Part shown: positions 30,716 through 63,501 of the stretch, piece after piece
Position numbering within the stretch: the first letter of the stretch is position 1
How the letters are laid out: each line of letters starts with the position of its first letter
Assembly (NCBI GenBank): GCA_020354645.1
Contig: CP070652.1
Coordinates: 190,330 to 254,329, forward strand
Length of the DNA: 64,000 nucleotides
Origin: Deltaproteobacteria bacterium
GTDB lineage: Bacteria > Desulfobacterota > Desulfobacteria > Desulfobacterales > G020354645
Direction of reading: 5' to 3'
Position numbers and translations under genes: made by a program
Notes under the pieces: model-generated
The model's input: the letters and a program-made list of their open reading frames with translations, nothing else
Database searches by the model: none
Told to the model about the DNA's origin: nothing

Positions 30716-31816
30716 CTATTTAATGTTTAGTGCTTTTTTTGCATTCTTGATATCCTTAAGAAGGGCATCGAGCATTGCCTGGGAACCTTCACCGCCGATT
30801 TCGATATATTTGGGATATACCGTTTCAGCCCTTTTCTTGAATGTGGCAATGGTGGCGTCATCCAGCACAGTAAACTTTAACTTGGATTTGGCCTTTTTCA
30901 TTTTTTCTTTATCGCTGGCATTTCTTTTAGTAATCCATTTCCCAGCAGGGATGATCGCATCGATCCAGAACTTGCGCATCTCCTGCTGAACCTCTTCGGG
31001 AAGGCTGTCAAAAAATTTCTGATTGACCGTGGGAATCCCCACAAACGGTTCGCTCTTTAGCTGAGTGCAGTAGTTCTGTACTTCATAGAACTTCATGCTA
31101 TAGATCGCAAAAAGCGGGTTGACCTGGGCATCAATAAGGCCCATCTGAAGCCCGCTGTAAACTTCCCCGTAGCTCATGGGCGTCGGAGCGGCCCCGTAAG
31201 CCTTGTAGTCTTCCACCAGCAGCTTCGAAGACATGAGTCTGAGCTTGAGACCTTTCATGTCATCCAGCGAGGTGATCGCCTTTTTGGAAGTCAGCCATTG
31301 CCACCCTTCAAACATTATCGACAGCGGCACCAGACCGTTCTTCCGGAAGGCCTCTTCCATCAGCGGCATGAACTCGCCGTTTCTGGCCATCCAGTCTAAT
31401 ACTTCCGGCACTTTTTCAGTGGGGAAGATATAGTTCAGCGCTAAAACCTGGGCCTGGGGAACAAATGAGCTGATCCAGGCGTAATCGGAAAAAACAAATT
31501 CTACCACCCCGAGCTGAGCCAGTTCATTGATATCGCCGCTGGCACCCAGCGTCCCGTATGGATATACATTAATATCAATCTTTCCGCCGGACCACTTTTT
31601 CATGTGATCAGAGAAATTTCTGGCCCAGACTGTCATAAAATCGCCTTCTATTTCTTCTGATGCCAGTCGCGCTTTAATGACCCTTCCCTCGTACTTCGCG
31701 GCAGAGACAATGCCGACACTAAAGATAAGCAAAAGCATCACTGTAATACTGATAATTTTTTTCACGGTAATACTCCTTCCTTTCCGGATTCGCAAAGCAG
31801 TCTTTTTACTTCGCAC
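30716..31816 (-). CDS. TRAP transporter substrate-binding protein (DctP family), copy 2
   Basis: Paralogous to 27697-28728. Shared blocks include EEIEG, YG.LG.SGDI.EL, GLKLRLMSS and MKFYEVQNY. Confidence 0.85.
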   Translation of the reverse strand: MRSKKTALRIRKGRSITVKKIISITVMLLLIFSVGIVSAAKYEGRVIKARLASEEIEGDFMTVWARNFSDHMKKWSGGKIDINVYPYGTLGASGDINELAQLGVVEFVFSDYAWISSFVPQAQVLALNYIFPTEKVPEVLDWMARNGEFMPLMEEAFRKNGLVPLSIMFEGWQWLTSKKAITSLDDMKGLKLRLMSSKLLVEDYKAYGAAPTPMSYGEVYSGLQMGLIDAQVNPLFAIYSMKFYEVQNYCTQLKSEPFVGIPTVNQKFFDSLPEEVQQEMRKFWIDAIIPAGKWITKRNASDKEKMKKAKSKLKFTVLDDATIATFKKRAETVYPKYIEIGGEGSQAMLDALLKDIKNAKKALNIK

Positions 31817-41467: not shown

Positions 41468-41525
41468 ACATTATGAGGAAATGGCCCCCCGTCAATCAAT
41501 AATTACCAAAGAGGTGATTGCAATA

Positions 41526-42692
41526 ATGTATTTTGAGTTCATAGAATACCAAGAAAGATTGAGAAAAATCAAGGAAGCCATGTACAAACAGGGAATCGAA
41601 GTTCTCCTGGTGACCGATCCCGCTAATATGAATTATGTGTCCGGTTATGACGGCTGGTCTTTCTATGTTCATCAGGGAGTCCTGGTCATTATTGACCGGG
41701 ACGAGCCGATCTGGTTTGGACGTCAGCAGGACAGCAATGGTGCACGCTTGACCACCTGGCTGAATGATGAGAGCATCCGCGGCTATCAGGACGACTACGT
41801 GCAATCGAAACTCAAGCATCAGATGGACTTTGTTGCGGACATACTCAAAGAGAGCGGTTGGGATCGAAGAAGCCTGGGGGTTGAAATGGACAATTATTAT
41901 TTTACCGGCCAGTGCCTGGAACAGCTTCGAAAGAATTTACCGCAAACCAGAATTATGGATGCCAATCTATTGGTTAACTGGATTCGGGTCATCAAGTCCG
42001 ATAAAGAAATCGAATACATGATAATGGCGGCCCGCATCGTGGAAAATGTCATGCAAACCGCCATCGAAGCAATTGGACCGGGGGTGAGAGAGGGTGATGC
42101 CGCCGGCAAGGTCTACCAGGCACAGATTCGCGGCACGCCTGAATATACCGGTGATTACAGCGCCATCATACCCATCATGCCGTCCGGCATCAGAACCTCC
42201 ACGGCCCATCTGTCCTGGACCGACCGGAAATATGAAACCGGGGACATGGTATTGCTTGAATTGTCAGGATGTAAATACCGCTATCATGCTCCGCTTTCCC
42301 GGACAGTGATGATCGGCAAAGCTCCGGCAGAACTTCAAGATATTGCCAAGGTGGTGATCGAGGGATTAAATCAAACCATCGATTTTATCAAACCGGGAGT
42401 CACCGCAGAAGAGGTGGAACAAAAATGGCGGGAGGCCATTGCAGGCAGTACCGTTGCCAAAGAGTCTCGTATCGGATATTGTTATGGACTGAATTACCCC
42501 CCGGATTGGGGTGAACACACCATTAGTTTGCGTCCCGGAGACAAGAACGTGCTCCAACCAAATATGACCTTGCATGTGATGCCCGGTATTTGGATCGAAA
42601 AATTCGGTTTCGAGTGCAGTGAACCGGTCCGGGTTACAGATAACGGTTGCGAGACATTTGTCAATTTTGCGAGAGAGCTTTTTATCAAATAA
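41526..42692 (+). CDS. M24-family creatinase/ectoine-hydrolase-like protein (DoeA/EutD-like), copy 2
   Basis: Collinear with copy 1 (LLVTDPANMNYVSGYDGWSFYVHQ..., YPPDWGEHTISLRPGDKNVLQPNMTLH, ARELFIK*). AAGAGGTGA RBS before ATG 41526. The track ORF starts at 41481. Confidence 0.8.
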   Translation: MYFEFIEYQERLRKIKEAMYKQGIEVLLVTDPANMNYVSGYDGWSFYVHQGVLVIIDRDEPIWFGRQQDSNGARLTTWLNDESIRGYQDDYVQSKLKHQMDFVADILKESGWDRRSLGVEMDNYYFTGQCLEQLRKNLPQTRIMDANLLVNWIRVIKSDKEIEYMIMAARIVENVMQTAIEAIGPGVREGDAAGKVYQAQIRGTPEYTGDYSAIIPIMPSGIRTSTAHLSWTDRKYETGDMVLLELSGCKYRYHAPLSRTVMIGKAPAELQDIAKVVIEGLNQTIDFIKPGVTAEEVEQKWREAIAGSTVAKESRIGYCYGLNYPPDWGEHTISLRPGDKNVLQPNMTLHVMPGIWIEKFGFECSEPVRVTDNGCETFVNFARELFIK

Positions 42693-42712: not shown

Positions 42713-43711
42713 ATGAAGGTTAGAATCCTGACGGAGAAAGAATTGCGCCGGTCCATTTCGGTCAATCAAGAGGCGCTTGCTGCAATTGAAGAAGCTTTCA
42801 GCTGGCTGGCGGAAGGAAAGGCGACGATGCCGCCAATTATGCATATCGAAGTGCCGGAATATAAGGGAGATGTGGATATCAAATCGGCCTATGTCTTAGG
42901 GCTGGAAAGCTTTGCCGTTAAATTGGGGGCCGGGTTTTTTGAAAACTACCGCCTGGGATTGCCCAACAGCCCCGCGATGATGGTTGTCCTCAGCGCCAAG
43001 ACCGGTTTTGCCGAGGCAGTTCTGTTGGATAATGCTTATCTGACCGATGTGAGAACCGGGGCCGCGGGCGCGGTGGTGGCAAAACACCTGGCACGCGCCA
43101 GCATCGAAAGTGCCGGTGTTATCGGAGCCGGCGCCCAGGGTCGCTACCAAATGATGGGGCTCAAGGTAGTTCGCGACTTCAAACGACTGCTGGCTTATGA
43201 CACCGACGCAGATCGGCTTGCACAATATAAACAGGAAATGGAGCCGGTCTTGGGGGTTGAGGTCATTGCTGCCGCTGACGCCAGCGAAGTCGTAAAAGAA
43301 AGCGATGCGGTGGTCACCAGCACACCTTCCCGCACGCCTTACCTGAAACCGGAATGGCTCCACCCGGGTTTACACATCACCGCCATGGGCGCTGATCTTC
43401 CGGATAAACAGGAGCTTGATCCGGAGGTGTTAAGACTGGCCGATTTGCTGGTATGCGACCGCAAAGCTCAATGCTTTTCAATGGGTGAGCTGCACCACGG
43501 CCTGACAACCGGGATTCTTTCCGAAGATTCTGACATTACCGAGTTGGGGGAAATCACATCCGGCAGGGCGCCCGGTCGGCAAAACGATGATCAGATCACT
43601 CTGTGTGATCTGACCGGCACCGGCGTCCAGGACACCGCAATAGCCTGTCTTGCTTTACACAAGGCCATTGAAAATGGGTTGGGGGTTGAAATCGACCTCG
43701 GTCTCCCGTGA
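42713..43711 (+). CDS. Ornithine cyclodeaminase / mu-crystallin-family NAD(P) enzyme (EutC-like)
   Basis: 332 aa. Rossmann GVIGAGAQG motif and family-typical blocks (LTDVRTGAA, TAMGAD). Confidence 0.87.
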   Translation: MKVRILTEKELRRSISVNQEALAAIEEAFSWLAEGKATMPPIMHIEVPEYKGDVDIKSAYVLGLESFAVKLGAGFFENYRLGLPNSPAMMVVLSAKTGFAEAVLLDNAYLTDVRTGAAGAVVAKHLARASIESAGVIGAGAQGRYQMMGLKVVRDFKRLLAYDTDADRLAQYKQEMEPVLGVEVIAAADASEVVKESDAVVTSTPSRTPYLKPEWLHPGLHITAMGADLPDKQELDPEVLRLADLLVCDRKAQCFSMGELHHGLTTGILSEDSDITELGEITSGRAPGRQNDDQITLCDLTGTGVQDTAIACLALHKAIENGLGVEIDLGLP

Positions 43712-49406: not shown

Positions 49407-50867
49407 TCAGTCTGTTTCAGCCGATAAAACGCCGGTCAAGCGCTGTTTCACATAATCGAAAAAGGGATTGTAACGGAGACGCATAAGCTGACTTACCGAA
49501 ACCCTGAGTATATTTCGCTCACCGCGTGGCTCAATGGACCCCAAACGAAGGCCGGATATTGGACCCTCTTGCTTACCACTCCCATAAACTGGATCCTCGG
49601 GAGCAACCGGGATTGCAACGTGGGACAGAGAATATAGTCCTCGCGGCCAGTTGAGATCCAGGGAAGCGTTGTTAAACATTTTGGATCGCGGCATCTTGGT
49701 TTTCGCAATGATAGCCAGCGAATCAGGGCTGGCGTTGGTGACGACCGTGATTTTGTATGGTAAGTCAGTCCTTTTTTCGAGTTGCATCAAAAGTTTGGAG
49801 TGGTCCGAAGCCAGAAAGTCCTTTAACGGAGCATGCCGATTGACGTCAAAAATTACGAGTTCACTGTTTGGATTTTCAATCTTGTTGTGGAGTTTCTCGA
49901 TTATTGCAGGGATCAATACTGTGGAATCCACTAATGATTGAAACGTCAGAATTGGTGGCAGTTTGTAAATTTGACCGGCCCGTTTGACCTCGTCGATCTG
50001 ACGTTGAACCTTGCGGGTCAAGTGATAAATCTGATCGCCGGCATTTTTTGAAAACGAGTTGTATTTGAAAGGATCATACTCTGGTTGAATGGATGTCCAT
50101 TTAAATTTTTCAAAATATGGGATGAAGCTTAAAATTTTATGCCAATCGGCTACTGCTCCCAACCGGGATACGCCAATCGCTGGAGAAAAGAGAACCAACC
50201 TTTGCGGCATGGGCAAATTCGAATTCTGCGCCGCATCCAAAGTATATTTGACTGCCAGCGCGCCACCGTTTGAATAACCCACTACATAAAACGGGCTATG
50301 CTTGTCAATCTGCTTGCGAACGTGAGCTGCACCGACCTTGGTTGCCGCCAACCAATCTGCCCATGTTACTGACGTAAGTGCCGCCGGAATAGTACCATGC
50401 CCCGGGATTCGAAGGCCCAAAACGTAAAAACCCTGCTGTTTAAAAATTTCTGCGACGCCTCTGAGACTGTAAGGTGAATCTGTGAGACCATGAAGAAATA
50501 AGGCGCCTCCCCTGATCTTAGACGGAATAAACTCATATGAACGATTCCAGTTTCGGGAGAAGCTTTGGGGGTTGCTGGGGCTGCGAAAGGAGTATCGATT
50601 AAATTTCAACGCCCCCGTTTGCTCGACTTTCTGGTAAACCTCCTCCCCAAGCTCTTTAAAAAGCCGCTCTTCAATCCTCAGATAGTCTTGAAATGTGAAG
50701 TTTTCGTGATAATCGCCCGCTTTAAATTCGGCATCCAGTGATGCCCGATGCCAAACACCAAGCGCCGGCATCCGCCGTGCATCAAAGGCCCGTACGAGGA
50801 TTATGGTAAACACGGGCAAAAGGATTATCAGGAAAACTTTCACAAGGACTTTTAGTACACGTTTCAT
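49407..50867 (-). CDS. Membrane-anchored alpha/beta-hydrolase (lysophospholipase/monoacylglycerol-lipase-like)
   Basis: LHGLTDSP oxyanion region and the GYSNGG nucleophile elbow. The likely start is ATG 50867 (MKRVLKVL..., TM anchor), just after the upstream stop. The track ORF starts at 50918. Confidence 0.75.
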   Translation of the reverse strand: MKRVLKVLVKVFLIILLPVFTIILVRAFDARRMPALGVWHRASLDAEFKAGDYHENFTFQDYLRIEERLFKELGEEVYQKVEQTGALKFNRYSFRSPSNPQSFSRNWNRSYEFIPSKIRGGALFLHGLTDSPYSLRGVAEIFKQQGFYVLGLRIPGHGTIPAALTSVTWADWLAATKVGAAHVRKQIDKHSPFYVVGYSNGGALAVKYTLDAAQNSNLPMPQRLVLFSPAIGVSRLGAVADWHKILSFIPYFEKFKWTSIQPEYDPFKYNSFSKNAGDQIYHLTRKVQRQIDEVKRAGQIYKLPPILTFQSLVDSTVLIPAIIEKLHNKIENPNSELVIFDVNRHAPLKDFLASDHSKLLMQLEKRTDLPYKITVVTNASPDSLAIIAKTKMPRSKMFNNASLDLNWPRGLYSLSHVAIPVAPEDPVYGSGKQEGPISGLRLGSIEPRGERNILRVSVSQLMRLRYNPFFDYVKQRLTGVLSAETD

Positions 50868-50877
50868 GAGTATACCG

Positions 50878-51996
50878 CTAATTTCGCTGATGTATGGGAC
50901 TTTGCTTGAGTTGTTCAATGATTAGGGTCACAGCCGGCGGTATCCGCTCACTTTTTTCTGAAACATTTCGAATCATGGATAGGTGTGTGCCGCGAACGAT
51001 CCGATGAGGAACCCCGTCCAGCCGCGAGGTAGATACCGTAACAATCCCATCGCCCAAACTATCGCTGACAGATTTTAAAAACTTTTTCAGCTCACCGAGC
51101 ATCTGATGTTCATTTTCAGATACTTCATCATGGATGGATTCAACAAACTCGTTGATGTCATCTTCATGCCAAGGACTGGCCACACCGGCGATCACAGACA
51201 TTTTTACACCTACCGGTTGAGGACGCGAATTTAGTCTGGTCAGAAACTTGCTGTCCGGCAGGAGATCGATCTTGGCTTCACCAGCACCGTCCAAAATCCA
51301 TTTAAGCCAATGGCCTTTACCTTCCGTGGCATTAATCCATTGATCTCGAAATTCCGTAAACACGCTAAAACGAGCAAGCTCCGAACCGTGGTTGGGGGTT
51401 CCCACCATGATGAGATCAACTACTTCCGGCACTTCGCCTGTTCCAGCTTTCTCAATGTATAAAAGATCAGGATTGGTCAGCATCTCGCGGGATACCAACC
51501 CGCCCATACTGTGCGCCACAATGCTGATGCGGTTGGTGCCGAGTTCTTTGAAACCACCTAACTCGTCAAAAAAGAGGCGCGCCGACATTGCAATCGGCTG
51601 ATCATTGGGATAACTCATTTCCCAAACATTAAAACCTTCTGCGGCTAAAGCGGGTGCCAGATTCATCCATACTTTTCCCGGTTCATCCAACCCGTGAATC
51701 AGGACGACTGTGGGGTAAAATTGTTTATTTGGTAGTGGGATGGCAAGGTTTGACCGAAACTGATGCAATCCGTATGTACCGGCCTCTTTGGCAGCTTGAT
51801 CAGGAAATTTACGTTCCACAGCCTCACGAATCTGTCGGCGAAGGCCTTTCTCCTCTTCACGGAAAAAATCCAAGCCAAAATGCCATCCAAAGATCAGCCC
51901 AAAAGATATTCCTATGGCAATCAACCAGCGCCGCCGCTTGCCGGTTTTAGTTTCTCTTTTTCCATTCCCTAAAATTCCAGCTCTTTCTTTAACCAC
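50878..51996 (-). CDS. Membrane-anchored alpha/beta-hydrolase (PGAP1/lipase-like)
   Basis: N-terminal TM helix, LIHGLDEPG, AHSMGG nucleophile elbow. Confidence 0.75.
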   Translation of the reverse strand: MVKERAGILGNGKRETKTGKRRRWLIAIGISFGLIFGWHFGLDFFREEEKGLRRQIREAVERKFPDQAAKEAGTYGLHQFRSNLAIPLPNKQFYPTVVLIHGLDEPGKVWMNLAPALAAEGFNVWEMSYPNDQPIAMSARLFFDELGGFKELGTNRISIVAHSMGGLVSREMLTNPDLLYIEKAGTGEVPEVVDLIMVGTPNHGSELARFSVFTEFRDQWINATEGKGHWLKWILDGAGEAKIDLLPDSKFLTRLNSRPQPVGVKMSVIAGVASPWHEDDINEFVESIHDEVSENEHQMLGELKKFLKSVSDSLGDGIVTVSTSRLDGVPHRIVRGTHLSMIRNVSEKSERIPPAVTLIIEQLKQSPIHQRN

Positions 51997-52316
51997 TCCT
52001 TTACCTCACCCTCCAATGCGTACACCCCTTTGAGCTCACAAATCGGTTTTTCAAATTGGTGGGGCAATTCGAATTTGGCCAGTTCAACGGCCTCTTCTGA
52101 ATTTCGCCGTATGAGATAAATATAATACGGTTTGGACCAGCAATTAACGACAAAATAATGGGTGTAATCATCCTTAGACCGGATGACGTATCCGTCACCA
52201 CGAACCCAGTTGTTTCCCCACTCGAGATAAAGCCGCACGGCTTCCTCGGGTGTCATTTCCCAATTGATCTCATCAATGAGTTCTCTTTCCTGTTTTAATT
52301 CTTCGAGGGTCAGCAT
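51969..52316 (-). CDS. Hypothetical protein (about 115 aa)
   Basis: ORF with a GAAGGGGAAA RBS before ATG 52316. The track ORF starts at 52349. No motif recognised. Confidence 0.45.
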   Translation of the reverse strand: MLTLEELKQERELIDEINWEMTPEEAVRLYLEWGNNWVRGDGYVIRSKDDYTHYFVVNCWSKPYYIYLIRRNSEEAVELAKFELPHQFEKPICELKGVYALEGEVKEWLKKELEF

Positions 52317-52524
52317 GTTGTTTTTCCCCTTCAATTTTTTCAATGCCATTTGACATAGTTACAGACGAGACTAAGGGCTCTTAAACAAAAGATCACAAAA
52401 TGGCTTCTCAAACCGCTTTGAGTAATTGAAATTGGGTTATTTTTCGGTAAAAAGTGCGTCGGGCATCGCAATATGTCAAGGCATCGATTTCAAGAAAAAT
52501 GACATCCAGATAGTGTTTGAAACC

Positions 52525-53361
52525 TCAGGCGGATAAGGCTTTCTTTGCTGTCCTGTTGAACAGATATATAAACAAAACGGCAACCAGCCAGCCGGCGATA
52601 ATATCGACGGCATAATGAAACATACAGTAGACGGTAGCAATTGAAAGGAAAAAGAGAACCGACCAGTAATAAATTTTCAATCTGCCCAGATGATTGTGTG
52701 CCCACCAGGCTACCAGAAAAGTTACGGCAACGTGGGAACTCGGAAAAGCTCCCCCGGCATTGTCACCCTTCGCGTAAAAATAATCCACGATAGCTTTAAA
52801 TAGCCCACCACCTTGAAAATAATCGTGTCTCAATTTGAGGGGTCCCTCAACCGGCAGGAATATGTATATCAAAAAACATACATAAAATAAGATAGAAATC
52901 TCGTAGACAAAACGTTCGAACAGCTTTTTGTCCTTCGGATACAACAGGAATGCGGTCATTGGAATAACAATGTAATAATTTGCATACGCAAAGTGAAAAA
53001 ACTCATCCAGGAACAGGTTCCCATTTTCTCCACGGAGATAAAAAGCGGGAAATTTGCCGAAGATTTTGACATCAAGATTCAAAAAAAAATCATCGAGAAA
53101 GCGCGGTATAACCACTGTATTGAGCATTCCTGACTGATAGTGCAAAAAAGCATATAACACCAAGGGATACCAGAGGCTCATAATAAAGAAGGTTGCATGG
53201 TTCCGCCGATTCAGGCTAAGCAACAGGATGATAAAAATAACAGAAAGGTTGAAGGTGATATGATAAGCTTGCAGAGAAATCTTTTTCCAAAAAACGAGAA
53301 CAAAAAAGACGACAACCAAGTTGTAGATTATCGTCATCCTATCGGTACCATTCAGATTCAC
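52525..53361 (-). CDS. PAP2-superfamily integral membrane protein with sphingomyelin-synthase/Aur1-like motifs
   Basis: About 6 TM helices. AFPSSHVAV (S-x-H) and FHYAVDIIAGW (H-Y-x-x-D) motifs. ATGA overlap with the upstream SDR gene. Confidence 0.72.
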   Translation of the reverse strand: MNLNGTDRMTIIYNLVVVFFVLVFWKKISLQAYHITFNLSVIFIILLLSLNRRNHATFFIMSLWYPLVLYAFLHYQSGMLNTVVIPRFLDDFFLNLDVKIFGKFPAFYLRGENGNLFLDEFFHFAYANYYIVIPMTAFLLYPKDKKLFERFVYEISILFYVCFLIYIFLPVEGPLKLRHDYFQGGGLFKAIVDYFYAKGDNAGGAFPSSHVAVTFLVAWWAHNHLGRLKIYYWSVLFFLSIATVYCMFHYAVDIIAGWLVAVLFIYLFNRTAKKALSA

Positions 53362-54338
53362 AACCAGCCTGCATTCCTGTACCAGTGATAGGTCGATTCG
53401 AAACCGTTTTCAAGTTCAACGTTTGGAATAAACCCGAGATGGGCCCTGATCTTATCAGTATTACAGACCCAGCCGTCTTGGAGAGCTTCCTTTACTTTCT
53501 GGCTGTTTATTACCTGAGGTTTATTGCTGAGATAGGCGATGCCGTCACCGACAACACCGGCAATCTTTCCAAAAATCGAAGGAACCCGGATGACTTTTCC
53601 ACCACCCTTGATTTTAATGATCAGCTTTGCGATTTCTTCCCAGGTATGAACCCCCCCATCGGAAAGATGGAAAATTTCTCCGTCACTCTTTTCGGTAAAG
53701 GCCGCCAGGATCACCCCATCGGTTACATCGTCCACGTGGATCATGGAAAGTTCCAGTTTACCCTTCCCCATAATCGGAACCACCCCGAGTTTGGCCATTC
53801 TAAAATAAACAAAAATCTGTTTGTCAAAGGGGCCATAAACCGCCGGCGGCCTGATGATGGTCCAGGGTATATCCTTGCACTTCTCCTTTAATAGTTGTTC
53901 TCCCCGGAGTTTGCTTTCCCCATAATGGGTTATCGGTGAAACTTCACCGTTTTCCTGCGCAGGATATTTTGCGGTGTGAGGCCCGGCAACAGCCAGTGAG
54001 GAAACGTACAGAATTTTTCTGACATTTTTTCCCGCCGATAAGACGGATTCAAACAAGTTTCCTGCCCCCTCACCGTTGATGCGGAAATACTCTTCTCTAT
54101 GTTTGGCCGTGTTCACACCAGCGAGATGGAAAACCGTTACTATATCCCCGAGGTAAGGAATAATGGTTTTTGGATGCTCTAAGTCCCCTTTAATTGGTTC
54201 GAGGCCATTATGCTGTTTCATCCAGGCCGCCCGATTCAGGTCGCGCACAAGACATCGAACGCAGTGTCCCATCTTGGAAAGCTTCACCGCAAGGTTTTTG
54301 CCGATAAACCCTGTAGCGCCGGTGAGAAATATTTTCAT
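53358..54338 (-). CDS. NAD(P)-dependent epimerase/dehydratase-family SDR (CerR-like candidate)
   Basis: MKIFLTGATGFIGKNL Rossmann motif and YGESK (YxxxK). 326 aa. ATGA overlaps on both sides. Confidence 0.8.
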   Translation of the reverse strand: MKIFLTGATGFIGKNLAVKLSKMGHCVRCLVRDLNRAAWMKQHNGLEPIKGDLEHPKTIIPYLGDIVTVFHLAGVNTAKHREEYFRINGEGAGNLFESVLSAGKNVRKILYVSSLAVAGPHTAKYPAQENGEVSPITHYGESKLRGEQLLKEKCKDIPWTIIRPPAVYGPFDKQIFVYFRMAKLGVVPIMGKGKLELSMIHVDDVTDGVILAAFTEKSDGEIFHLSDGGVHTWEEIAKLIIKIKGGGKVIRVPSIFGKIAGVVGDGIAYLSNKPQVINSQKVKEALQDGWVCNTDKIRAHLGFIPNVELENGFESTYHWYRNAGWL

Positions 54339-55462
54339 AACTGCTTTCCATATATCCGGTAGGTTTTGTAAGGTTCCCTGACTATTCTGGATATAATCCT
54401 GTTCATTGCAACATTATCTTCCAGTATCCAGGATATTTCTCCTTCGAAATACCCCTTCAATGGTCCGACACGATAAATTTCTTCGAACATTGCCGCTTCG
54501 ATTCCGCTTTTTCGATACTCTTCAATGACGCCCATGACGAGTACCCGCAACCGGTCTATTTTTCGACGTCCCAGAAGAAGCTTCAAAAAGCCGAAAGGGA
54601 AAAGTCTGCCTTTCATTTTTTTAAAGATAAGGTTGTAGTCCGGCAGGGCCAGAAAAAATCCCGCTGGTTGATCTCCCACATAGGCGAAATAGGCCAGGCT
54701 GGGATTCACAATTTGTTTCAGATCAGCTGCAATAAACTCGATGTCTTCGTCCGTCCTGGGGACAAACCCCCAGTTTTTCTCCCAGGCGGAGTTATAAATT
54801 TTGTTCACCAGCTGGAGATCTGAATCAAAGTTCTTTAAGTTGAATCTCCTCAAATAAACCCCGTATCGTTTTTTTATCCTTGCACTGATACGCGTTATGA
54901 ACTGAGGTACGGTACCGTCATATTTAACATGATATGCATAAAGATCTTTAACTTTGTCAAATCCGCAGACCTCAATAAGGCGCCGGTAATAAGGGTAATT
55001 GTAAGGCATCATAAAATAAGGGCTCGAGTCAAAGCCATTAACGAGAAGACCCAGCTCATCATTTGTATTAAAATTCATGGGGCCAAGAACGGATTCCATT
55101 CCCTTTTTGCGGTGAAAATCGCAAACTTTTTCAAAAAGCGCCCCAGCCACATCAGCATCATCAATACAGTCGAAAAATCCAAAAAATCCTGACCTGTCTT
55201 CATGAAATTTTACGTAATTCCAGTCGATCTGCGCACTGATCCGACCCAACACTTCACCATTGTCGGATAGGGCAAGGTAATATTCTACCTCTGCATGTTT
55301 AAAAAAAGGATTTTTCCGGGGATTAAATAAGTTTTTTCGCTCGAAGAGCAGATGGGGAACATAATATGGGGATTGCGAATAAAGGCTTAAAGGAAATTTA
55401 ATAAATTTAAGAAGTTCTTGCCCTGAAGAAGCGTTGACCGCGACAACCTTCAATTGCAGCAC
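54335..55462 (-). CDS. GNAT-like acyltransferase-fold protein (bacterial ceramide synthase bCerS-like candidate)
   Basis: 375 aa. The C-terminal half has a GNAT-like block (GVIEEYRKSGIEAAMFEE). It sits between Spt-like and SDR genes with 3-4 nt junctions. Confidence 0.55.
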   Translation of the reverse strand: MLQLKVVAVNASSGQELLKFIKFPLSLYSQSPYYVPHLLFERKNLFNPRKNPFFKHAEVEYYLALSDNGEVLGRISAQIDWNYVKFHEDRSGFFGFFDCIDDADVAGALFEKVCDFHRKKGMESVLGPMNFNTNDELGLLVNGFDSSPYFMMPYNYPYYRRLIEVCGFDKVKDLYAYHVKYDGTVPQFITRISARIKKRYGVYLRRFNLKNFDSDLQLVNKIYNSAWEKNWGFVPRTDEDIEFIAADLKQIVNPSLAYFAYVGDQPAGFFLALPDYNLIFKKMKGRLFPFGFLKLLLGRRKIDRLRVLVMGVIEEYRKSGIEAAMFEEIYRVGPLKGYFEGEISWILEDNVAMNRIISRIVREPYKTYRIYGKQL

Positions 55463-55465
55463 TCC

Positions 55466-56659
55466 TTATATAATACCGAGTTCTCGTCCAATCTTTTCCA
55501 GCTTGGCCAAGGCAAAATCAATATGCTCGAAAGTATGGGTAGCCATCAAACTCAGACGTATCAGGCAATCTCCTTCAGGAACTGCAGGAGCTACGACAGG
55601 ATTCACCCAGACCCCTTCTTCCTGAAGTTTTTTGCAGCACATAAAAGTGTTTAACGTATCTCCCACTCTAATCGGAATTATCGGAGTTTCTGATTTTCCG
55701 GTATCAAATCCGAGTTGCTTAAGACCCTCCATCAACCGGGCAGTATTTTGCCACAGCTGCTCGATGCGCTCCGGCTCCCTTTTCATAATATTCAGGGCAG
55801 CTTTAACTGCGGCAACATTTGCAGGCGTCATGCTGGCGCTGAAGATCAAGGCCCTGGCGGTGTGCTTGAGATAGTCAATGGTATCCTCATCGGACGCGAC
55901 GAATCCCCCCAAGGATGCAAGAGATTTGCTGAAAGTGCCCATGATGATCTGGACTTCATCAGTAACACCGAAGTGGTTAGAAGTGCCGGCGCCATTCCTG
56001 CCCATTACGCCGATTCCATGGGCATCATCAACCATCAGCGCAGATCCATACTTTTTGCATGATTCTATAATTTCCGGCAGCTTTGCAATATCGCCCTCCA
56101 TGCTGAAAACGCCGTCCACAACGACCAGTTTCCCTTTTCCTCGCGGCAGGCTATCAAGGACTCTCGCGAGATTCACCATATCATTGTGGCTGAAATTTAC
56201 CTTTTTACCGAAACTAAGCCTGGCACCATCGATGATACTTGCATGGTTAAACTTATCTGTTATGACATATTCTCCTTTGCCGACCAGCGACGAAATTATC
56301 CCAAGATTCGTTTGAAAGCCGGTGGAAAATACAAGCGCGCTTTCCTTCCCGACCAGTTCAGCAAGCTCCTCCTCAAGTTCTCTGTGAATGTCTAAGGTCC
56401 CGTTTAAAAACCTGGATCCGGCACATCCGGTTCCGTAATTTTCGATGGCATCAATGGTTGCCTTTTTTACGTCGGGATGAGTGGTAAGGCCGAGATAGCT
56501 ATTTGATCCGAGCATCACCAGCATATTACCGTCTAATCTGACCACAGGGCCCTGCGGAGAGGAAATTTCCCTGAAGTATGGGTAAATACCCATATCCTTG
56601 ATAAGTTTAGCGGCATCGAAACTAACAGCCTTTTCCATCAGCGAGATTCCATCAGGCAT
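55466..56659 (-). CDS. Alpha-oxoamine synthase family PLP enzyme (serine palmitoyltransferase-like; BioF/Kbl not excluded)
   Basis: [15 protein letters not shown] and the [15 protein letters not shown]-Lys block. GGAGAAG RBS. Confidence 0.82.
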
Positions 56660-56980
56660 GGCAGCTTCTCCTTCTTTCCTCTTTTAAGCTATTGTTAGGG
56701 AGATATCACATCTACCCACGGGTGTGTCAAGATTTGAAATTAAATATAGCTGTTATTCACAATTTTTCTTTGATTTATGGCTAAAATATGAGCCGAATTC
56801 CAAGAACACACTTGGATTGCAGCTTTCATATCGTGCTTTTGACTAAAAATTAACGTAAAAAAACAAAATGCTGGCTCAAAATGCAAATAAAAAAGTCGCA
56901 ATCACAAAAAAACTGTTAGAATTCAAACCTTCTCAGAGGATCTTTTTTTTGGTGAAAATATTTTCTGAACCTTCTGTGTA

Positions 56981-59490: not shown

Positions 59491-60123
59491 GTGAGAAAAT
59501 TGGTCGATTTCAAACAAAAGCGTTCGGACAAAAAAGATCAAATTATCGGCGCTGCTGCCCAAGTTTTTGCTCAAAAGGGATTTGCAGGAGCGGTTATGGC
59601 CGAGATTGCTGCCACTGCAGGAATTGGGAAAGGAACCATCTACGAATATTTCAACAGCAAAGAAGATCTTTTCTTTGCCGTATTTGAATGGCTCAGCCAC
59701 AAAATCGCCTCGGCAGCCACGGTCAGGATTTCTGCCCTTGGGGGATCGGCCGCCGAGCGTTTGGTTGCATTAAACGATTCCGTGGTATGTTCCGTGTTGA
59801 AGATGATGGATATGTACTCTCTGGTCATGGAGTTTTGGGCCGCATCGTCGTCTTCCGTTATGAGAAAACGCTTTAAGACAGCTTTCAGACAAGCCTATCG
59901 TGACTTTCGAGCTATTGTAACATCATTAATTCAAGAGGGTATCGAGCGTGGTGAATTTACTTCAGGCGTGAATCCTGAATCGATTGCTGCCGCATTGGTC
60001 GGAATGTGGGATGCCCTTCTCCTTCAAGCGTGGTTTGATGATGCGTTTGAGCCACTGAAAACGTCTAAAGATTTCTTGGTCATACTCCTGGTGGGTCTGG
60101 CAGCAGAAAAGCAAAAATTATGA
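59491..60123 (+). CDS. TetR/AcrR-family transcriptional regulator
   Basis: N-terminal HTH (IIGAAAQVFAQKGFAGAVMAEIAATAGIGKGTIYEYF). The start may be the in-frame TTG at 59500, after AGGTGAG. Confidence 0.88.
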   Translation: MRKLVDFKQKRSDKKDQIIGAAAQVFAQKGFAGAVMAEIAATAGIGKGTIYEYFNSKEDLFFAVFEWLSHKIASAATVRISALGGSAAERLVALNDSVVCSVLKMMDMYSLVMEFWAASSSSVMRKRFKTAFRQAYRDFRAIVTSLIQEGIERGEFTSGVNPESIAAALVGMWDALLLQAWFDDAFEPLKTSKDFLVILLVGLAAEKQKL

Positions 60124-60920
60124 TGGCATCGAGTATGAACGGGTTGTTGCCCAAAGGTATGTTCGGAAGATTTGTTAAAGCACTTTTACCAACCGCACTC
60201 ATATGGTTTACAGGTTCCGTCGGTGTCGGGGCCATGGACGCTGAAACTCTGGTGGTTTCCAGCTTCAACTACATGCGGGGAAAGGCTTCGATTTCAACCG
60301 TAGAAATGGTTATTCATCGTCCAGATTGGGAAAGGCGCATGACGATCAAAGCTTGGACCAAAGGTGAAAAGGAAAGCCTCTTAATTATTACCGCTCCGCC
60401 CAAGGATAAAGGGAACGGCACGTTAAAAAAAGGGCGGGAAATGTGGATTTACAATCCCAAGGTCAACAGGGTTATGAAGCTGCCCCCTTCAATGATGTCC
60501 CAGGCATGGATGGGATCAGATTTTTCAAATAACGACCTCGCCAAATCGGACAGCCTGATCTATGATTACAGCCACCGGGTGATCGAAACCGAAATTAATG
60601 CGGGTAAAAAAGTATATCACATCGAATCGCGGCCGAAACCGGATGCACCGGTAGTTTGGGGAATGCTAAAACTTAAAATAAGGGAAGATCTGATTCTGTT
60701 AAGCGAAACCTTTTTTGACGAAGAGCTTAAGCCGGTAAAAGTTATGACGACTTTAGAAATACAATTGCTGGGCGGTAAACTCTACCCAAAGGTGTGGAAA
60801 ATGCAAAAAGCCGGCACCCAAGACGAATATACCCTATTAGACTACAAGGCCCTATCGTTTAAACCCGGTTTACCCGACCGATTTTTCACCGTTTCGAATT
60901 TAAAAACCATCAGGAGGTAA
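60120..60920 (+). CDS. LolA-like outer-membrane lipoprotein-sorting-family protein
   Basis: Signal peptide. The GREMWIYNPKVNRVMKLPPSMMSQAWMGSDFSNNDL block is typical of this family. 4-nt overlap with tetR. Confidence 0.68.
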   Translation: MMASSMNGLLPKGMFGRFVKALLPTALIWFTGSVGVGAMDAETLVVSSFNYMRGKASISTVEMVIHRPDWERRMTIKAWTKGEKESLLIITAPPKDKGNGTLKKGREMWIYNPKVNRVMKLPPSMMSQAWMGSDFSNNDLAKSDSLIYDYSHRVIETEINAGKKVYHIESRPKPDAPVVWGMLKLKIREDLILLSETFFDEELKPVKVMTTLEIQLLGGKLYPKVWKMQKAGTQDEYTLLDYKALSFKPGLPDRFFTVSNLKTIRR

Positions 60921-60926
60921 CCGGCT

Positions 60927-62165
60927 TTGTCCGTAAATGCCAAAATGGCCTGGCGAAACATCTGGCGTAATCCGCGCAGAAGCATATTGACGATATCCGC
61001 AATCGCCTTTGCTAGCCTTCTGCTCGTGTTTATGCTGTCTTTTCAGTTTGGATTCTACGAGGCGGCTATAAACGCCTCCGTTAAGATACACGCCGGCCAT
61101 CTGCAGATCCAGGCCGAAGGATACCAGGATAAAAAAAGCATGCGACTGGTGGTACCCGATCCCGGCTCCATGGGCAGCATTCTAGCAAATATTGAAGCCG
61201 TCAAAGCGTATACGTATCGTGCCAACGCCTTCTCCTTAGTGTCCTCTGAGAAACGAATTCACGGCGTCATGGTAACCGGCATTGACCCGGTCAGTGAGGC
61301 AAAAGTATCAACACTCAAAAATCTGATTCGTGATGGAACCTACCTGACAGATAAGGATGATTATCAGGCTTTGGTAGGCCAGCTTTTGGCCCAAAACTTG
61401 CGCATCGGTCCCGGCGATGAATTAACGTTATTGGGCCAGGCCCGAGACGGATCTGTTGCCGCCACGGTCGTAAAGGTTCAAGGGATTTACCGATCCGGCC
61501 TGGATGAACTCGACCGGTCGTCCGTCCATATACCTTTAAAAACCTTTCAGGAAGTGTACGCCATGGGGAATGCCGTTCATCAAGTCGTAGCCATCGGAGA
61601 ATCATTGTCGGCCATACCGGAGATTAGGGCATCATTAAAATCCCGTTTATCATCACTGAATCAAAACAATCCTCTAAAGGTGCTGGATTGGGAAGAACTC
61701 ATGCCCGGCTTGCGCCAGGCCATTGAAATGGATCTGGTCAGCGGTTTGATCTTTTATGTGCTTTTGATCATCGTTGTGGGCTTTAGCATTCTCAATACCT
61801 TTCTGATGGCGATTTTTGAGCGGACCAAAGAATTTGGCATAATGAAAGCTATCGGCACAACTCCGGTAAGGCTCACCAAACTGCTGCTGATAGAATCATT
61901 GTCGATTACGATAGTGGGTATTATCGCCGGTATTATTCTTGGTATCGGGATTACGTATTATTTCCAAATTCATGGGATCGATTTCTCGGGATCATCTGAC
62001 TTGTTAAGCCAATTCGGTATTTCCGGCCGGATGTATCCAAAAATTACAGTGCTCTCGATTTTGATCGGACCCAGCCTGGTGCTGGGAATCACCTTCCTGG
62101 CAGCACTTTATCCGGCCCTTAAAGTCCGAAGAATCCGCCCGGTGGAAGCCCTGACGCATGTATAG
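60927..62165 (+). CDS. ABC transporter permease, FtsX/MacB/LolC type
   Basis: N-terminal AWRNIWRNPRRS motif, large periplasmic domain, C-terminal 3 TM FtsX domain. Confidence 0.85.
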   Translation: MSVNAKMAWRNIWRNPRRSILTISAIAFASLLLVFMLSFQFGFYEAAINASVKIHAGHLQIQAEGYQDKKSMRLVVPDPGSMGSILANIEAVKAYTYRANAFSLVSSEKRIHGVMVTGIDPVSEAKVSTLKNLIRDGTYLTDKDDYQALVGQLLAQNLRIGPGDELTLLGQARDGSVAATVVKVQGIYRSGLDELDRSSVHIPLKTFQEVYAMGNAVHQVVAIGESLSAIPEIRASLKSRLSSLNQNNPLKVLDWEELMPGLRQAIEMDLVSGLIFYVLLIIVVGFSILNTFLMAIFERTKEFGIMKAIGTTPVRLTKLLLIESLSITIVGIIAGIILGIGITYYFQIHGIDFSGSSDLLSQFGISGRMYPKITVLSILIGPSLVLGITFLAALYPALKVRRIRPVEALTHV

Positions 62166-62167
62166 CA

Positions 62168-62199
62168 ATGCTGAATTCGGAAAACACCGAATTCAGCAT
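62168..62199 (+). terminator. Perfect 13-bp stem-loop between the two permease genes (terminator/attenuator-like)
   Basis: ATGCTGAATTCGG-AAAACA-CCGAATTCAGCAT followed by GTTTTAGGTTTTA, starting 3 nt after the stop. Confidence 0.45.
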
Positions 62200-62280
62200 G
62201 TTTTAGGTTTTAAGTCCGTTCAAACCTAAAGCTTAATAAAACCAAATACTAAAAACTTAACACCTAAAACTATAATAACA

Positions 62281-63501
62281 ATGTATCTCCAATTGGCCTG
62301 GCGCAACATTTGGCGAAATCCCCGACGAACAACGGTCATTTTGCTGGCCATAATTATTGGCGTATGGAGTATGATCTTTGAAAACGCCCTCATGCGGGGG
62401 ATTACGGTGGGGATGATTAAAAATAGCATCGCCACCCTAACCGGGCACATCCAGATCCATCGCCGGGGATATCGGAGTGACCCGGTGATTGAAAACAGCA
62501 TAACCGAGCCTGAAGCAGTCATCGCCGCACTCAAGAGGATTTTGCCACCCGGAACCCAATGGGCCGCTAGAGTCCGGGTTAATGGAATCGCCAGTAATGC
62601 CAGGCATTCCAGCGGTGTTACCCTTGTCGGAATTGATCCGGCTTCCGAAGCTAAGGTTTCGTTTATCGGAGATGCAATTGCCGGTGGACATCAGCTTCAG
62701 CCGGATGACCCCCACGCGATTGTGGTGGGTGAGGCGCTGTTGGACAAATTTGAAACCAAAATCGGTCATAAATTGGTGTTGATGTCCCAGGACACCAATC
62801 AGGAAATTGCCTCCAAGGCTTTCCGCATTGTTGGAACATTCAAGGCAGAAATGCAGTCCACCGAAAAACAATTTGTTTTTATAACCCGTAAAGCCGCTCA
62901 GCAAATGCTGAAACTGCGACAGGGCCTGTCAGAAGTTTCAATCGTTTTACCGGATCAGCAAGAGTCTGGGGTGGCATCACGTTTAAAGGCAATTTTGTCA
63001 CCGAATGGATATGAAGTAAATACATGGAAAGAACTACTTCCCTTCCTCCGGGCGTATCTGAAACTGTTGGATGTTTTCGTATATATTTGGAGCCTTGTGA
63101 TTTTTATCGCCATGGGGTTTGGCATCGTTAACACCACATTAATGGCCGTATTTGAACGGATAAGAGAATTTGGATTGATGAAGGCCCTGGGCATGAAGCC
63201 TTGGTGGATTGTGCGACAGGTTTTGACCGAATCTTTCCTGCTTTTGATAATCGGAATAATTATGGGAAACATCCTGGCATTTTTAACCGTACTGGCGCTA
63301 TCGGATAGCGGCATCGATTTGTCCGCTCTGGCTGCCGGCGCCGAGTTTGCCGGAATGACCCGTGTCATCTACCCGATTGTAAGTATTAAGGATTGGTCAA
63401 TCGCCAATCTGTTAGTCATGGTTCTGGGTCTTCTCATATGCATTTATCCCGCCGCAAAGGCAGCCAAGTTTACGCCGATCGAGGCATTGGCTTATACGTA
63501 A
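62281..63501 (+). CDS. ABC transporter permease, FtsX/MacB/LolC type (second copy)
   Basis: Same architecture and the same N-terminal AWRNIWRNPRRT motif as 60927-62165. Confidence 0.85.
   Translation: MYLQLAWRNIWRNPRRTTVILLAIIIGVWSMIFENALMRGITVGMIKNSIATLTGHIQIHRRGYRSDPVIENSITEPEAVIAALKRILPPGTQWAARVRVNGIASNARHSSGVTLVGIDPASEAKVSFIGDAIAGGHQLQPDDPHAIVVGEALLDKFETKIGHKLVLMSQDTNQEIASKAFRIVGTFKAEMQSTEKQFVFITRKAAQQMLKLRQGLSEVSIVLPDQQESGVASRLKAILSPNGYEVNTWKELLPFLRAYLKLLDVFVYIWSLVIFIAMGFGIVNTTLMAVFERIREFGLMKALGMKPWWIVRQVLTESFLLLIIGIIMGNILAFLTVLALSDSGIDLSALAAGAEFAGMTRVIYPIVSIKDWSIANLLVMVLGLLICIYPAAKAAKFTPIEALAYT

Follow-up and report, generated by a model that had tools for sequence, protein, structure and literature searches.

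A putative spt-bcerS-cerR ceramide operon with a linked gene for a candidate head-group transferase

In Caulobacter crescentus, ceramide synthesis involves Spt (CC_1162), the N-acyltransferase bCerS (CC_1154/CCNA_01212) and CerR (CC_1164/CCNA_01222), accompanied by AcpR and AasR as well as ceramide-phosphoglycerate and glycosyl genes. Published counterparts connect CC_1154 with yghO (ECD_02850) and DRN02_007910 as the N-acyltransferase that dihydroceramide formation requires, and CC_1164 with ECD_02852 and DRN02_007875 as the reductase (PMC9386255). In alpha-, beta- and gamma-Proteobacteria, cerS has been reported to lie always in a separate operon. Another Spt subgroup, the CFB/delta type, takes acyl-CoA directly (PMC9386255) and includes the crystallised enzyme of Sphingobacterium multivorum (PDB 3A2B, 8GUH). 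On the side of the head group, BT_1522 of Bacteroides thetaiotaomicron, an AUR1 homologue, is a proven bacterial phosphatidylinositol-dihydroceramide synthase. The distribution of the pathway was surveyed in the Black Sea (ISME J 2024), where Spt-like, bCerS and CerR genes were found co-localised in MAGs belonging to 38 phyla, Desulfobacterota among them (PMC11334938). Hence, sphingolipid potential in Desulfobacterota was already on record, although the first-pass annotation of the present locus had regarded such lipids in a sulfate-reducer-like anaerobe as notable; sulfate reduction by the organism is not shown by the window itself. The ceramide core as such is a known pathway. A linked PAP2_3 gene or phosphosphingolipids are not discussed in the searched text of the survey (PMC11334938).

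Organization of the operon

The window analysed here is a 64-kb stretch of a 5.57-Mb contig from the MAG of an uncultured deltaproteobacterium, which carries four tightly coupled minus-strand genes between 52525 and 56659, with the coordinates and lengths proposed in the first-pass annotation:

56660-56980, minus strand: upstream spacer, 321 nt, AT-rich, presumed promoter region
55466-56659, minus strand: spt, 397 aa, CFB/delta-proteobacterial-type serine palmitoyltransferase
54335-55462, minus strand: bcerS-like tandem-GNAT N-acyltransferase, 375 aa
53358-54338, minus strand: cerR-like extended SDR reductase, 326 aa
52525-53361, minus strand: PAP2_3 polytopic membrane protein, candidate ceramide phospho-head-group transferase, 278 aa
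52350-52524, minus strand: downstream spacer and operon end, 175 nt

These are genuine genes and not chance ORFs, since each has many homologues and each matches a GenBank protein exactly (UCH23962.1, UCH21894.1, UCH21893.1 and UCH21892.1). Their junctions had been described as 3-nt spacings or ATGA overlaps. This is correct for Spt/GNAT, where the sequence reads TAA (Spt stop), GGA and GTG, and for GNAT/SDR, which is an ATGA overlap, but not for SDR/PAP2, where the overlap is GTGA. GenBank starts the GNAT gene at a TTG at 55453, 9 nt downstream of the GTG and preceded at 7 nt by AAGGAG, which results in a protein of 372 aa and a gap of 12 nt. A strong Shine-Dalgarno sequence, GGAAAGAAGGAG, is located 6 nt 5' of the Spt ATG, and TTGACA occurs about 70 nt upstream within the 321-nt spacer. 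In a consensus promoter scan of this spacer, sites were no more frequent than in shuffled sequence, and no Rfam family matched it; a terminator search past the operon gave nothing convincing. The operon is followed by genes for a DVU0772-family protein and two alpha/beta hydrolases, neighbours which are unconserved, as the downstream genes differ in the relatives L085 and L087.

The ceramide trio

The alpha-oxoamine synthase of the operon is an Spt and not a BioF or Kbl, as had been assumed: among NCBIfam models SerpalmtaseCFB scores highest (603.6 bits, just below its equivalog cut-off of 640, versus 407 for bioF and 395 for Kbl), and the same ranking is obtained against solved structures (SPT 475 bits, Kbl 261, BioF 224). 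With the crystallised S. multivorum enzyme (8guh/3a2b) it shares 56% identity over 387 aa and an identical lysine segment, while it differs from this Bacteroidetes type in host phylum and in falling under the CFB cut-off. Its PLP-lysine motif GTFSKS is located at residues 241-246. In a neighbour-joining tree, which provides the phylogenetic placement called for earlier, it groups with Spt homologues that are linked to a GNAT, in a clade that excludes Kbl and BioF. Caulobacter Spt, in contrast, belongs to a different subgroup. The acyl-CoA-using subtype also explains a further difference to the Caulobacter pathway, namely the absence of ACP and acyl-ACP synthetase noticed in the first-pass annotation, which was borne out by tblastn of the whole 64-kb window with E. 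coli AcpR and AasR and the Sphingomonas ACP (no match at E<=1e-3).

For the second protein, neither Pfam nor NCBIfam gave a match. Its AF2 model (pLDDT 91) nevertheless finds tandem GNATs as best Foldseek matches (7q3a, 2wpw, MshD), confirming the GNAT-like assignment, and its full-length identity of 34-36% to Sphingomonas aca, E. coli YghO and a Streptomyces GNAT makes it bCerS-like by homology to published counterparts. Caulobacter bCerS, at about 375 aa, is likewise an N-acyltransferase of the tandem-GNAT kind and lacks a Pfam domain. Kinship to the Caulobacter bCerS and CerR was assessed by proxy, through the published counterparts of E. coli B and Sphingomonas; the Spt of the Sphingomonas locus used (L081) matches the crystallised S. 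paucimobilis SPT over almost its whole length (907 bits).

The third protein is a member of the Pfam Epimerase family (102.9 bits) with the SDR motifs GATGFIG (residues 7-13) and YGESK (residues 139-143), and no signal peptide or TM segment was found in it. Full-length identity amounts to 26-31% for E. coli epi, Sphingomonas epi and the Streptomyces SDR, and to only 26-27% for the proteobacterial CerR counterparts; the tree of the SDR had a single outgroup. Its assignment as CerR counterpart is carried by a search of two complete E. coli chromosomes, in which the best and, at E<=1e-15, sole match was epi, the published CerR counterpart, located about 2 kb from yghO. Conversely, each of the reference proteins matched its own counterpart alone in the window. 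All three enzyme families of the Caulobacter-type trio are thus supported by family scores and counterpart homology, and a ceramide core consisting of spt, bcerS and cerR is considered highly likely. In comparison to Caulobacter, however, bcerS is part of the spt operon, where it separates spt from cerR, and the position of the ceramide-phosphoglycerate and glycosyl genes is taken by the PAP2_3 gene.

The PAP2_3 protein and alternative readings

Loss of the C1 motif together with the C3 arginine is the pattern of sphingomyelin-synthase and Aur1 transferases. The fourth protein follows this pattern: the phosphatase C1 motif KX6RP is lacking, and in all members, whatever their phylum, another residue stands in place of the C3 Arg, whereas the catalytic motifs FPSSH (H210) and HYAVD (H249, D253) are present, FPS.H and HY..D being invariant in homologues across phyla. 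The protein thereby resembles Aur1/BT_1522 and SMS/SMSr in keeping the C2 His and the C3 His/Asp, and it shares the Pfam family PAP2_3 with the Aur1/BT_1522 inositol phosphorylceramide synthases (PAP2_3 71.8 bits, PAP2 38.8, PAP2_C 23.4). With its model of mediocre quality (pLDDT 68), Foldseek placed PgpB and LpxE below its top hits Aur1, IPC synthase and SMSr, though at weak E-values of 0.018-0.76. Pfam, motifs and these weak fold matches all point away from a canonical phosphatase and towards the Aur1/sphingomyelin-synthase type, in line with the head-group-transferase-like character first suggested, and on balance a function as head-group transferase is somewhat favoured.

Alternatively, the trio might work as proposed with the PAP2 protein as a lipid phosphate phosphatase, regulating or recycling lipids, for which ceramide-1-phosphate, long-chain-base phosphate, PGP or undecaprenyl pyrophosphate might serve as substrate. 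Such a role appears unlikely. The protein passes the general Pfam PAP2 model, and its sequence profile matched PAP2 phosphatases alone in the PDB (B. subtilis PgpB/YodM with E 0.0055, and LpxE), but these matches are confined to the C2-C3 core, the phosphate-binding C1 motif and the C3 Arg of phosphatases are those missing here, and both the best Pfam family, with a weak PAP2_C match beside it, and the fold ranking argue for a transferase. In one relative, a DAGK_cat kinase gene overlaps the end of the PAP2_3 gene. It could encode a ceramide kinase, giving a kinase/phosphatase pair, yet a DAG kinase beside a DAG-releasing transferase makes equal sense.

Rather improbable is a non-canonical N-acyl amino lipid, for which the Spt-like enzyme would use alanine, glycine or cysteate so that its product would be of the capnine/sulfonolipid type or a 1-deoxyceramide. 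In favour of this reading are the promiscuity of alpha-oxoamine synthases, an Spt score slightly under the equivalog cut-off, and Black Sea data in which Desulfobacterota and/or Bacteroidota are associated with 1-deoxyceramides and sulfono-1-deoxyceramides (PMC11334938). However, the SPT structure scores nearly twice as high as cysteate-C-fatty acyltransferase 28eh (259 bits) or 7u7h (245 bits), and an Aur1/SMS-type transferase requires the serine-derived C1 hydroxyl; by the same token, the 1-deoxyceramide link counts against a head-group step, as such lipids offer no C1 hydroxyl. Finally, a BioF/Kbl paralogue in a cluster for biotin, threonine or sugar-nucleotide work, with the SDR acting on a sugar, is compatible with the generic names alone (Pfam Aminotran_1_2 for gene 1 and Epimerase, GenBank annotation of the operon proteins) and is effectively refuted by the lead of Spt-specific models and structures of 170-250 bits, the tree, a neighbourhood in which no biotin or tdh genes were found near the operon, and an SDR that in E. 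coli matches epi of the sphingolipid cluster alone, not GalE or RfaD.

Linkage in other genomes and proposed pathway

Linkage was examined in a sample of 80 GNAT loci from many phyla, equally broad as the Black Sea survey (PMC11334938). Spt was present in the GNAT flanks of 59 loci, in 52 of them directly upstream on the same strand, and an SDR was linked in 52/80. At 17 loci there was a PAP2_3 ORF belonging to the same subfamily as that of the window, with a score of 168 bits or more for an HMM made from this subfamily; the hmmsearch total of 20 PAP2 hits additionally comprises a more distant PAP2_3 at Saprospiraceae locus L048 (48 bits) as well as two short ORFs of generic PAP2 type (26-31 bits). 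The identical four-gene order was found nine times, in Brocadiaceae, Acidobacteria, Eisenbacteria and Gemmatimonadota. In close relatives, the PAP2_3 gene holds the same operon position, and it is linked to Spt and SDR in all six contexts examined. The Spt-GNAT-SDR order with overlapping junctions recurs on a plasmid of Streptomyces sp. NBC_01001 (43%, 36% and 31% identity to the window proteins, respectively), also in Rubrobacter and Nonomuraea, but there a condensation-domain protein follows instead of PAP2_3. A cerS outside the spt operon was seen at loci L081-L083, and the three ceramide genes are scattered in the genomes of gut Bacteroidota (PMC11334938), unlike the single operon found here.

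At L048, PAP2_3, Spt, GNAT and SDR genes are placed amid MIPS, CDP-alcohol phosphatidyltransferase, PgpA and a sphingolipid-desaturase-like gene, gene families that also make up the inositol-sphingolipid cluster proven in B. thetaiotaomicron. The window protein resembles this PAP2_3 in the catalytic core alone (32% over 98 aa), so that the head group is not transferable from this example, whereas its alignment with a Bacteroides finegoldii homologue, whose gene overlaps that of a CerR-like SDR, extends over the full length. It belongs to a subfamily separate from the Aur1/BT_1522 and sphingomyelin-synthase proteins, and its head group is probably not inositol, because the window lacks inositol genes. 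For this widespread subfamily, no functional study was found in the literature.

We infer substrates, products and reaction order from homology as follows. Spt, a soluble PLP enzyme, would condense L-serine with a long-chain acyl-CoA to 3-ketosphinganine, making a dedicated ACP unnecessary. The tandem-GNAT bCerS homologue would then use an acyl thioester to N-acylate the long-chain base, and NAD(P)H-dependent reduction of the 3-keto group by the extended-SDR CerR homologue would yield dihydroceramide; the order of N-acylation and reduction is debated in the field, and the gene order of the window fits the acylate-then-reduce model. With a His-His-Asp site as in Aur1/sphingomyelin synthase, the PAP2_3 protein may transfer a phospho-alcohol from a glycerophospholipid (PE, PG or PI) to the ceramide C1 hydroxyl, releasing diacylglycerol. 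As a whole explanation, a co-transcribed, translationally coupled sphingolipid operon spt-bcerS-cerR-PAP2_3 is likely. Very probably, its enzymes produce ceramide, to which a head group is then attached through phosphate, and the product would be a phosphosphingolipid of the cell envelope.

The four-gene operon and its surroundings

The first-pass annotation had described four minus-strand open reading frames as a ceramide operon with a linked head-group enzyme, and their coordinates and lengths were confirmed exactly:

55466-56659, minus strand: gene 1, serine palmitoyltransferase (Spt)-like, 397 aa
54335-55462, minus strand: gene 2, GNAT acyltransferase (bCerS-like), 375 aa
53358-54338, minus strand: gene 3, SDR (CerR-like), 326 aa
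52525-53361, minus strand: gene 4, PAP2_3 membrane protein, 278 aa

Of the tight junctions described earlier, the 3-nt spacing (a TAA-GGA-GTG gap between genes 1 and 2) and the ATGA overlap of genes 2 and 3 stand, while genes 3 and 4 in fact share a GTGA overlap. Two start sites are annotated differently in GenBank, where gene 2 begins with a TTG at 55453, located 9 nt past the GTG and 7 nt after AAGGAG (55453-55462), and Spt begins four codons later at a non-canonical ATC, though the ATG at 56659 is preceded by a strong SD (56648-56659). Exact protein matches are UCH21892-UCH21894 and UCH23962, which lie on a 5.57-Mb contig in a MAG entered in GenBank as 'Deltaproteobacteria bacterium'. The GC content is unremarkable.

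Spacers of 321 nt upstream and 175 nt downstream flank the operon, the former carrying a strong ribosome-binding site at its operon-proximal end. Consensus scans of these flanks for promoters and terminators yielded hits at or below shuffled expectation, and no Rfam family matched anywhere in the window. Based on the two spacers and the different neighbours found in relatives, a DVU0772-family gene, two alpha/beta hydrolases, an HtrA-like protease and an MBL-fold gene were rejected as operon members. Downstream, the minus-strand stretch 49407-52349 encodes the DVU0772-family small protein and the two hydrolases, both membrane-anchored, one of them PGAP1/lipase-like and the other a Hydrolase_4 protein with a weak BipL phospholipase match. 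Both are possibly lipid-active, and their adjacency to the operon is not kept in relatives. On the plus strand, 2.8 kb upstream and opposite to the operon, positions 59491-63501 encode two FtsX/MacB-type permeases together with a TetR regulator and a LolA_like protein of the type that sorts outer-membrane lipoproteins. As extra LptF/LptG paralogues are present in proteobacterial sphingolipid loci, a lipid-export role would be conceivable by analogy.

Elsewhere, positions 22971-43711 (both strands) form an apparent ectoine or amino-acid catabolism region, which includes arginase-family, PALP, class-III and class-I/II aminotransferase as well as M20 and M24 peptidase genes, together with the following features:

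41481-42692: DoeA-like ectoine hydrolase
42713-43711: EutC-like cyclodeaminase
27697-31816: TRAP transporter genes

An Aminotran_1_2 gene at 35210-36424 was rejected as alpha-oxoamine synthase, as it matches no Spt reference. As regards the label of a sulfate-reducer-like organism, the window offers no demonstration of sulfate reduction and contains HdrB/HdrC-like and DVU0772-family genes only. At 662-3698 (minus strand), an HdrB-like CCG-domain protein and a 590-aa Fer4/NarI-like (QmoC/HdrC-like) membrane protein are encoded, which are typical of anaerobic respiratory metabolism and no proof of sulfate reduction.

The probable ceramide core: genes 1 to 3

Gene 1 displays the alpha-oxoamine synthase fold (Pfam Aminotran_1_2, 197.5 bits) and carries the PLP-lysine motif GTFSKS at residues 241-246, a segment identical in SPT 8guh. 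Its best NCBIfam model is SerpalmtaseCFB (CFB-type Spt) with 603.6 bits, followed by the BioF/Kbl-family (431), bioF (407) and Kbl (395) models. The score misses the SerpalmtaseCFB equivalog cut-off of 640 by 36 bits and exceeds that of every non-Spt model by about 170 bits, and gene 1 is read from its sequence as a divergent member of the Spt clade rather than a different enzyme. Among solved structures, SPT from Sphingobacterium multivorum scores 475 bits (56% identity over 387 residues), compared to 314 for a BioF/Kbl-type protein, 261 for Kbl, 259 for cysteate acyltransferase, 224 for BioF, about 200 (201) for ALAS and 140 for CqsA. A neighbour-joining tree places gene 1 among Spt homologues encoded beside the GNAT family, with the proven proteobacterial Spts as sister group. 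The earlier reading of gene 1 as Spt-like is upheld by SPT scoring highest and by this tree, which was built with two outgroups and no bootstraps and leaves Kbl and BioF of E. coli outside the group. Likewise, the reported lack of a dedicated ACP and acyl-ACP synthetase was borne out, no homologue of either being found at the operon or elsewhere in the window. This agrees with the published split of bacterial Spts, according to which the Bacteroidetes/delta-proteobacterial group uses acyl-CoA while the alpha/beta/gamma group needs AcpR and AasR.

Gene 2 yielded no match in Pfam or NCBIfam and noise only in a sequence search of the PDB; YghO and Sphingomonas aca, the E. coli and Sphingomonas counterparts of bCerS, are equally without Pfam match. 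Its AlphaFold (AF2) model (pLDDT 91) is a tandem GNAT, and Foldseek retrieved tandem GNATs (E 3e-12, TM ~0.6) with MAB_4324, the clavulanate tandem GNAT and MshD as best fold matches. The protein fits the size range of its GNAT acyltransferase family (~370-385 aa), which is very large, comprising at least 7,897 matches.

Homology to Caulobacter bCerS and CerR was measured through published E. coli and Sphingomonas counterparts, with the N-acyltransferase required for dihydroceramide, CC_1154, corresponding to yghO (ECD_02850) and DRN02_007910, and the reductase CC_1164 to ECD_02852 and DRN02_007875 (PMC9386255). The counterpart loci were located by tblastn against PLSDB, where two complete E. 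coli chromosomes (NZ_OL790696.1, NZ_CP141089.1) are filed as plasmids. On a Sphingomonas parapaucimobilis replicon, the order epi-ACP-Spt-...-LptF-LptG-desaturase-aca (epi being the CerR counterpart) agrees with the DRN02 numbering, and the encoded Spt is essentially the crystallised 2JG2 protein (907 bits). The E. coli locus reads AasR-epi-AcpR-Spt with yghO divergent. In non-K-12 E. coli, every component known from the Caulobacter-type system (AasR, epi, AcpR, Spt, extra LptF/LptG, YghO) is encoded beside the glc operon (L083:5495-11092).

Over its full length, gene 2 shares 34% identity with Sphingomonas aca (E 5e-73) and 36% with YghO (E 4e-69), and a Streptomyces GNAT is also 36% identical. 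By homology, it is assigned to the bCerS acyltransferase family, with N-acylation of 3-ketosphinganine or sphinganine as predicted activity. Gene 3 is an extended SDR with the motifs GATGFIG (7-13), SS (113-114) and YGESK (139-143), of which the first is the NAD(P)-binding Rossmann motif and the last the catalytic Tyr-x3-Lys. It aligns at full length with epi of E. coli (26%, E 5e-30) and Sphingomonas (27%, E 1e-28) and with the SDR of the Streptomyces cluster (31%), the best solved SDR reaching 76 bits only. The match is specific, since at E<=1e-15 each of the two whole E. coli chromosomes returned a single hit, epi, located about 2 kb away from yghO, with neither GalE, RfaD nor any other SDR matched at this threshold. 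Judged by its E. coli, Sphingomonas and Streptomyces counterparts rather than by Caulobacter CerR itself, gene 3 is classified as a CerR-family reductase. Caulobacter CerR is reported to be periplasmic and inner-membrane-associated. Gene 3 displays neither a signal peptide nor a hydrophobic segment (maximum KD19 1.24), its Rossmann motif starting at residue 7, and the Sphingomonas counterpart likewise opens directly with this motif. Published work distinguishes the 3-KDS reductase BT_0972 of B. thetaiotaomicron from CerR, and the paper on BT_0972 does not mention a PAP2 neighbour.

Gene 4 and its linkage across genomes

Gene 4 matches Pfam PAP2_3 with 71.8 bits (cut-off 27) and PAP2 with 38.8 bits, while PAP2_C (23.4 bits) stays just under its cut-off of 27. 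Its residues FPSSH210 and H249-YAV-D253 are invariant in 17 sequences from several phyla, and homologues with 24-35% identity from five or more phyla share invariant P-x-GP, FPS-x-H and HY-xx-D-xxx-G motifs. Conservation of the C2 His and of the C3 His and Asp without the C1 motif or the C3 arginine marks sphingomyelin, Aur1 and IPC synthases as opposed to lipid phosphate phosphatases. In the gene 4 family, neither the phosphatase C1 motif KX6RP nor SRX5HX3D was found, and the C3 'SR' of PgpB aligns to 'AT' in gene 4, with 'AT' or similar in the family. The top three Foldseek matches of its moderate AlphaFold model (pLDDT 68) are Aur1 9ivc (TM 0.52), IPC synthase 9vj4 (0.52) and SMSr 8ijq (0.46) at E 0.018-0.76. 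These structures, representing Aur1-Kei1, an IPC synthase-ceramide complex and human SMSr-ceramide, rank above PgpB and LpxE, albeit with weak E-values. The main rival reading takes gene 4 as a phosphatase; a sequence search of the PDB with gene 4 returned nothing, and its profile retrieved phosphatases only, over the C2-C3 core only. From its motifs, gene 4 is predicted to be a PAP2_3 protein of the transferase type, for which operon context points to a putative ceramide acceptor and glycerophospholipid donor.

Linkage was assessed in 80 loci among the matches listed, with one genome per species, covering Bacteroidota, Ignavibacteria, Zixibacteria, Planctomycetota, Acidobacteriota, Gemmatimonadota, Spirochaetia and other groups. 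None of the matches listed is closer than 50% identity, and Caulobacter is not among them. An Spt homologue is present in the flanks of 59 of the 80 loci listed, directly upstream on the same strand in 52, and an SDR is likewise found in 52 of the 80. The complete Spt-GNAT-SDR-PAP2 order is identical in nine of these 80 loci. Association of the GNAT with spt and cerR also occurs in E. coli, Sphingomonas, Roseomonas and Streptomyces, the latter with an Spt-GNAT-SDR arrangement and overlapping junctions.

An HMM built from the gene 4 subfamily identified clear members (>=168 bits) in 17 of the 80 loci listed, including a Bacteroidales MAG in which the PAP2_3 gene directly follows the GNAT. Three further loci gave weaker matches, namely a distant PAP2_3 protein in L048 (48 bits) and two short, mainly generic-PAP2 ORFs (26-31 bits). 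In close relatives, Spt-GNAT-SDR-PAP2_3 is followed by a DAGK_cat kinase gene in one case and by a DUF3047 protein in another, and homologues of neither were found in the window. The former (L085:10923-11798, GCA_012974925.1; GNAT 62% identical) is a lipid kinase encoded by a fifth gene which overlaps the PAP2_3 stop; its substrate may be diacylglycerol or ceramide. Three metagenome contigs from more distant relatives (L092-L094; PAP2_3 57-60% identical) show the order SDR-Spt-PAP2_3, in which the GNAT is missing and ACP and KAS genes come next; two of them additionally have an ABC-2 transporter and a B12-radical SAM gene. In Bacteroides finegoldii (L090:5992-7955, NZ_OY725910.1), a 10-nt overlap joins a CerR-like SDR gene to a PAP2_3 gene (UHF62_RS05335) whose product matches gene 4 over its full length (24% identity, E 3e-16) and which is not part of an inositol cluster. 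Such an SDR/PAP2_3 pairing was not found in Parabacteroides distasonis.

A Saprospiraceae MAG chromosome (OZ244935.1, 4650385-4667491) harbours nine genes in a single run on one strand (L048:3309-12286), encoding, in order, a CDP-alcohol phosphatidyltransferase, a sphingolipid-delta4-desaturase-like protein (FA_desaturase and Lipid_DES), a fatty-acid hydroxylase, a PAP2_3 protein, Spt, a bCerS-like GNAT, a CerR-like SDR, myo-inositol-1-phosphate synthase and PgpA. All four families known from the experimentally proven inositol-sphingolipid cluster of B. thetaiotaomicron (BT_1522 being the AUR1 homologue) are thereby brought together with the trio. The run looks like a complete inositol-phosphoceramide super-operon. 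Gene 4 aligns with its PAP2_3 protein over a 98-aa catalytic core only and, hence, represents a separate subfamily. Inositol genes were not found in the window.

Proposed pathway and its implications

In the best-supported reading of the four sequences, Spt would condense serine and acyl-CoA to 3-ketosphinganine, which the GNAT would N-acylate; reduction of the 3-keto group by the SDR would follow, yielding dihydroceramide. The PAP2_3 protein would then move a phospho-head group from a glycerophospholipid to the ceramide with release of diacylglycerol. The gene order is suggestively collinear with this acylate-then-reduce model, and the DAGK_cat kinase encoded next to PAP2_3 in one of the relatives could fit diacylglycerol recycling, and equally a ceramide kinase. 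As a minor rival, gene 1 could take an amino acid other than serine, leading to lipids of the 1-deoxy or sulfono type, which are associated with Desulfobacterota in the Black Sea study (ISME J 2024, PMC11334938); serine is the substrate in the best-supported pathway.

The ceramide core as such is known: the pathway was defined in 2021-2022, and the Black Sea study found Spt-like, bCerS and CerR genes located together in MAGs from 38 phyla, among them Desulfobacterota. Calling sphingolipids in such an anaerobe notable, as the first-pass annotation did, was thus overstated, and the operon is a very compact example of a predicted pathway. A PNAS 2024 paper on sulfate-reducer lipidomes does not mention sphingolipids. 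Here, bcerS lies inside the spt operon, which contradicts the published generalisation that cerS of Proteobacteria always has an operon of its own, transcribed apart from spt. Moreover, the three core genes and a head-group candidate make up a single block of ~4.1 kb with coupled translation and no requirement for a dedicated ACP, making it an ideal cassette for heterologous reconstitution.

In the literature searched, no function is assigned to the Spt-/CerR-linked PAP2_3 subfamily, nor was a gene for bacterial PE-dihydroceramide synthesis found. PE-dihydroceramide is still present in the BT_1522 knockout, so a second enzyme must exist. The gene 4 subfamily could reasonably be considered a candidate for such a PE-dihydroceramide synthase, and the SDR-coupled PAP2_3 protein of B. 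finegoldii, owing to its position outside any inositol cluster, is a candidate for the Bacteroides enzyme. The subfamily includes gene 4, its counterparts from Planctomycetota, Acidobacteriota, Gemmatimonadota and Eisenbacteria, and also the B. finegoldii gene coupled to CerR. It is possible, if somewhat short of probable, that this operon-linked subfamily is the bacterial synthase of non-inositol phosphosphingolipids, i.e., ceramide phosphoethanolamine and/or phosphoglycerol. As a distinct and phylogenetically widespread group that is CerR-coupled in Bacteroides too, it provides a testable candidate for the formation of phosphoethanolamine/phosphoglycerol ceramides, lipids that matter for host-microbe signalling in the gut and mouth and as biomarkers in anoxic environments. 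If this assignment is true, many uncultured anaerobes would build phosphosphingolipid envelopes by means of a single four-gene cassette.
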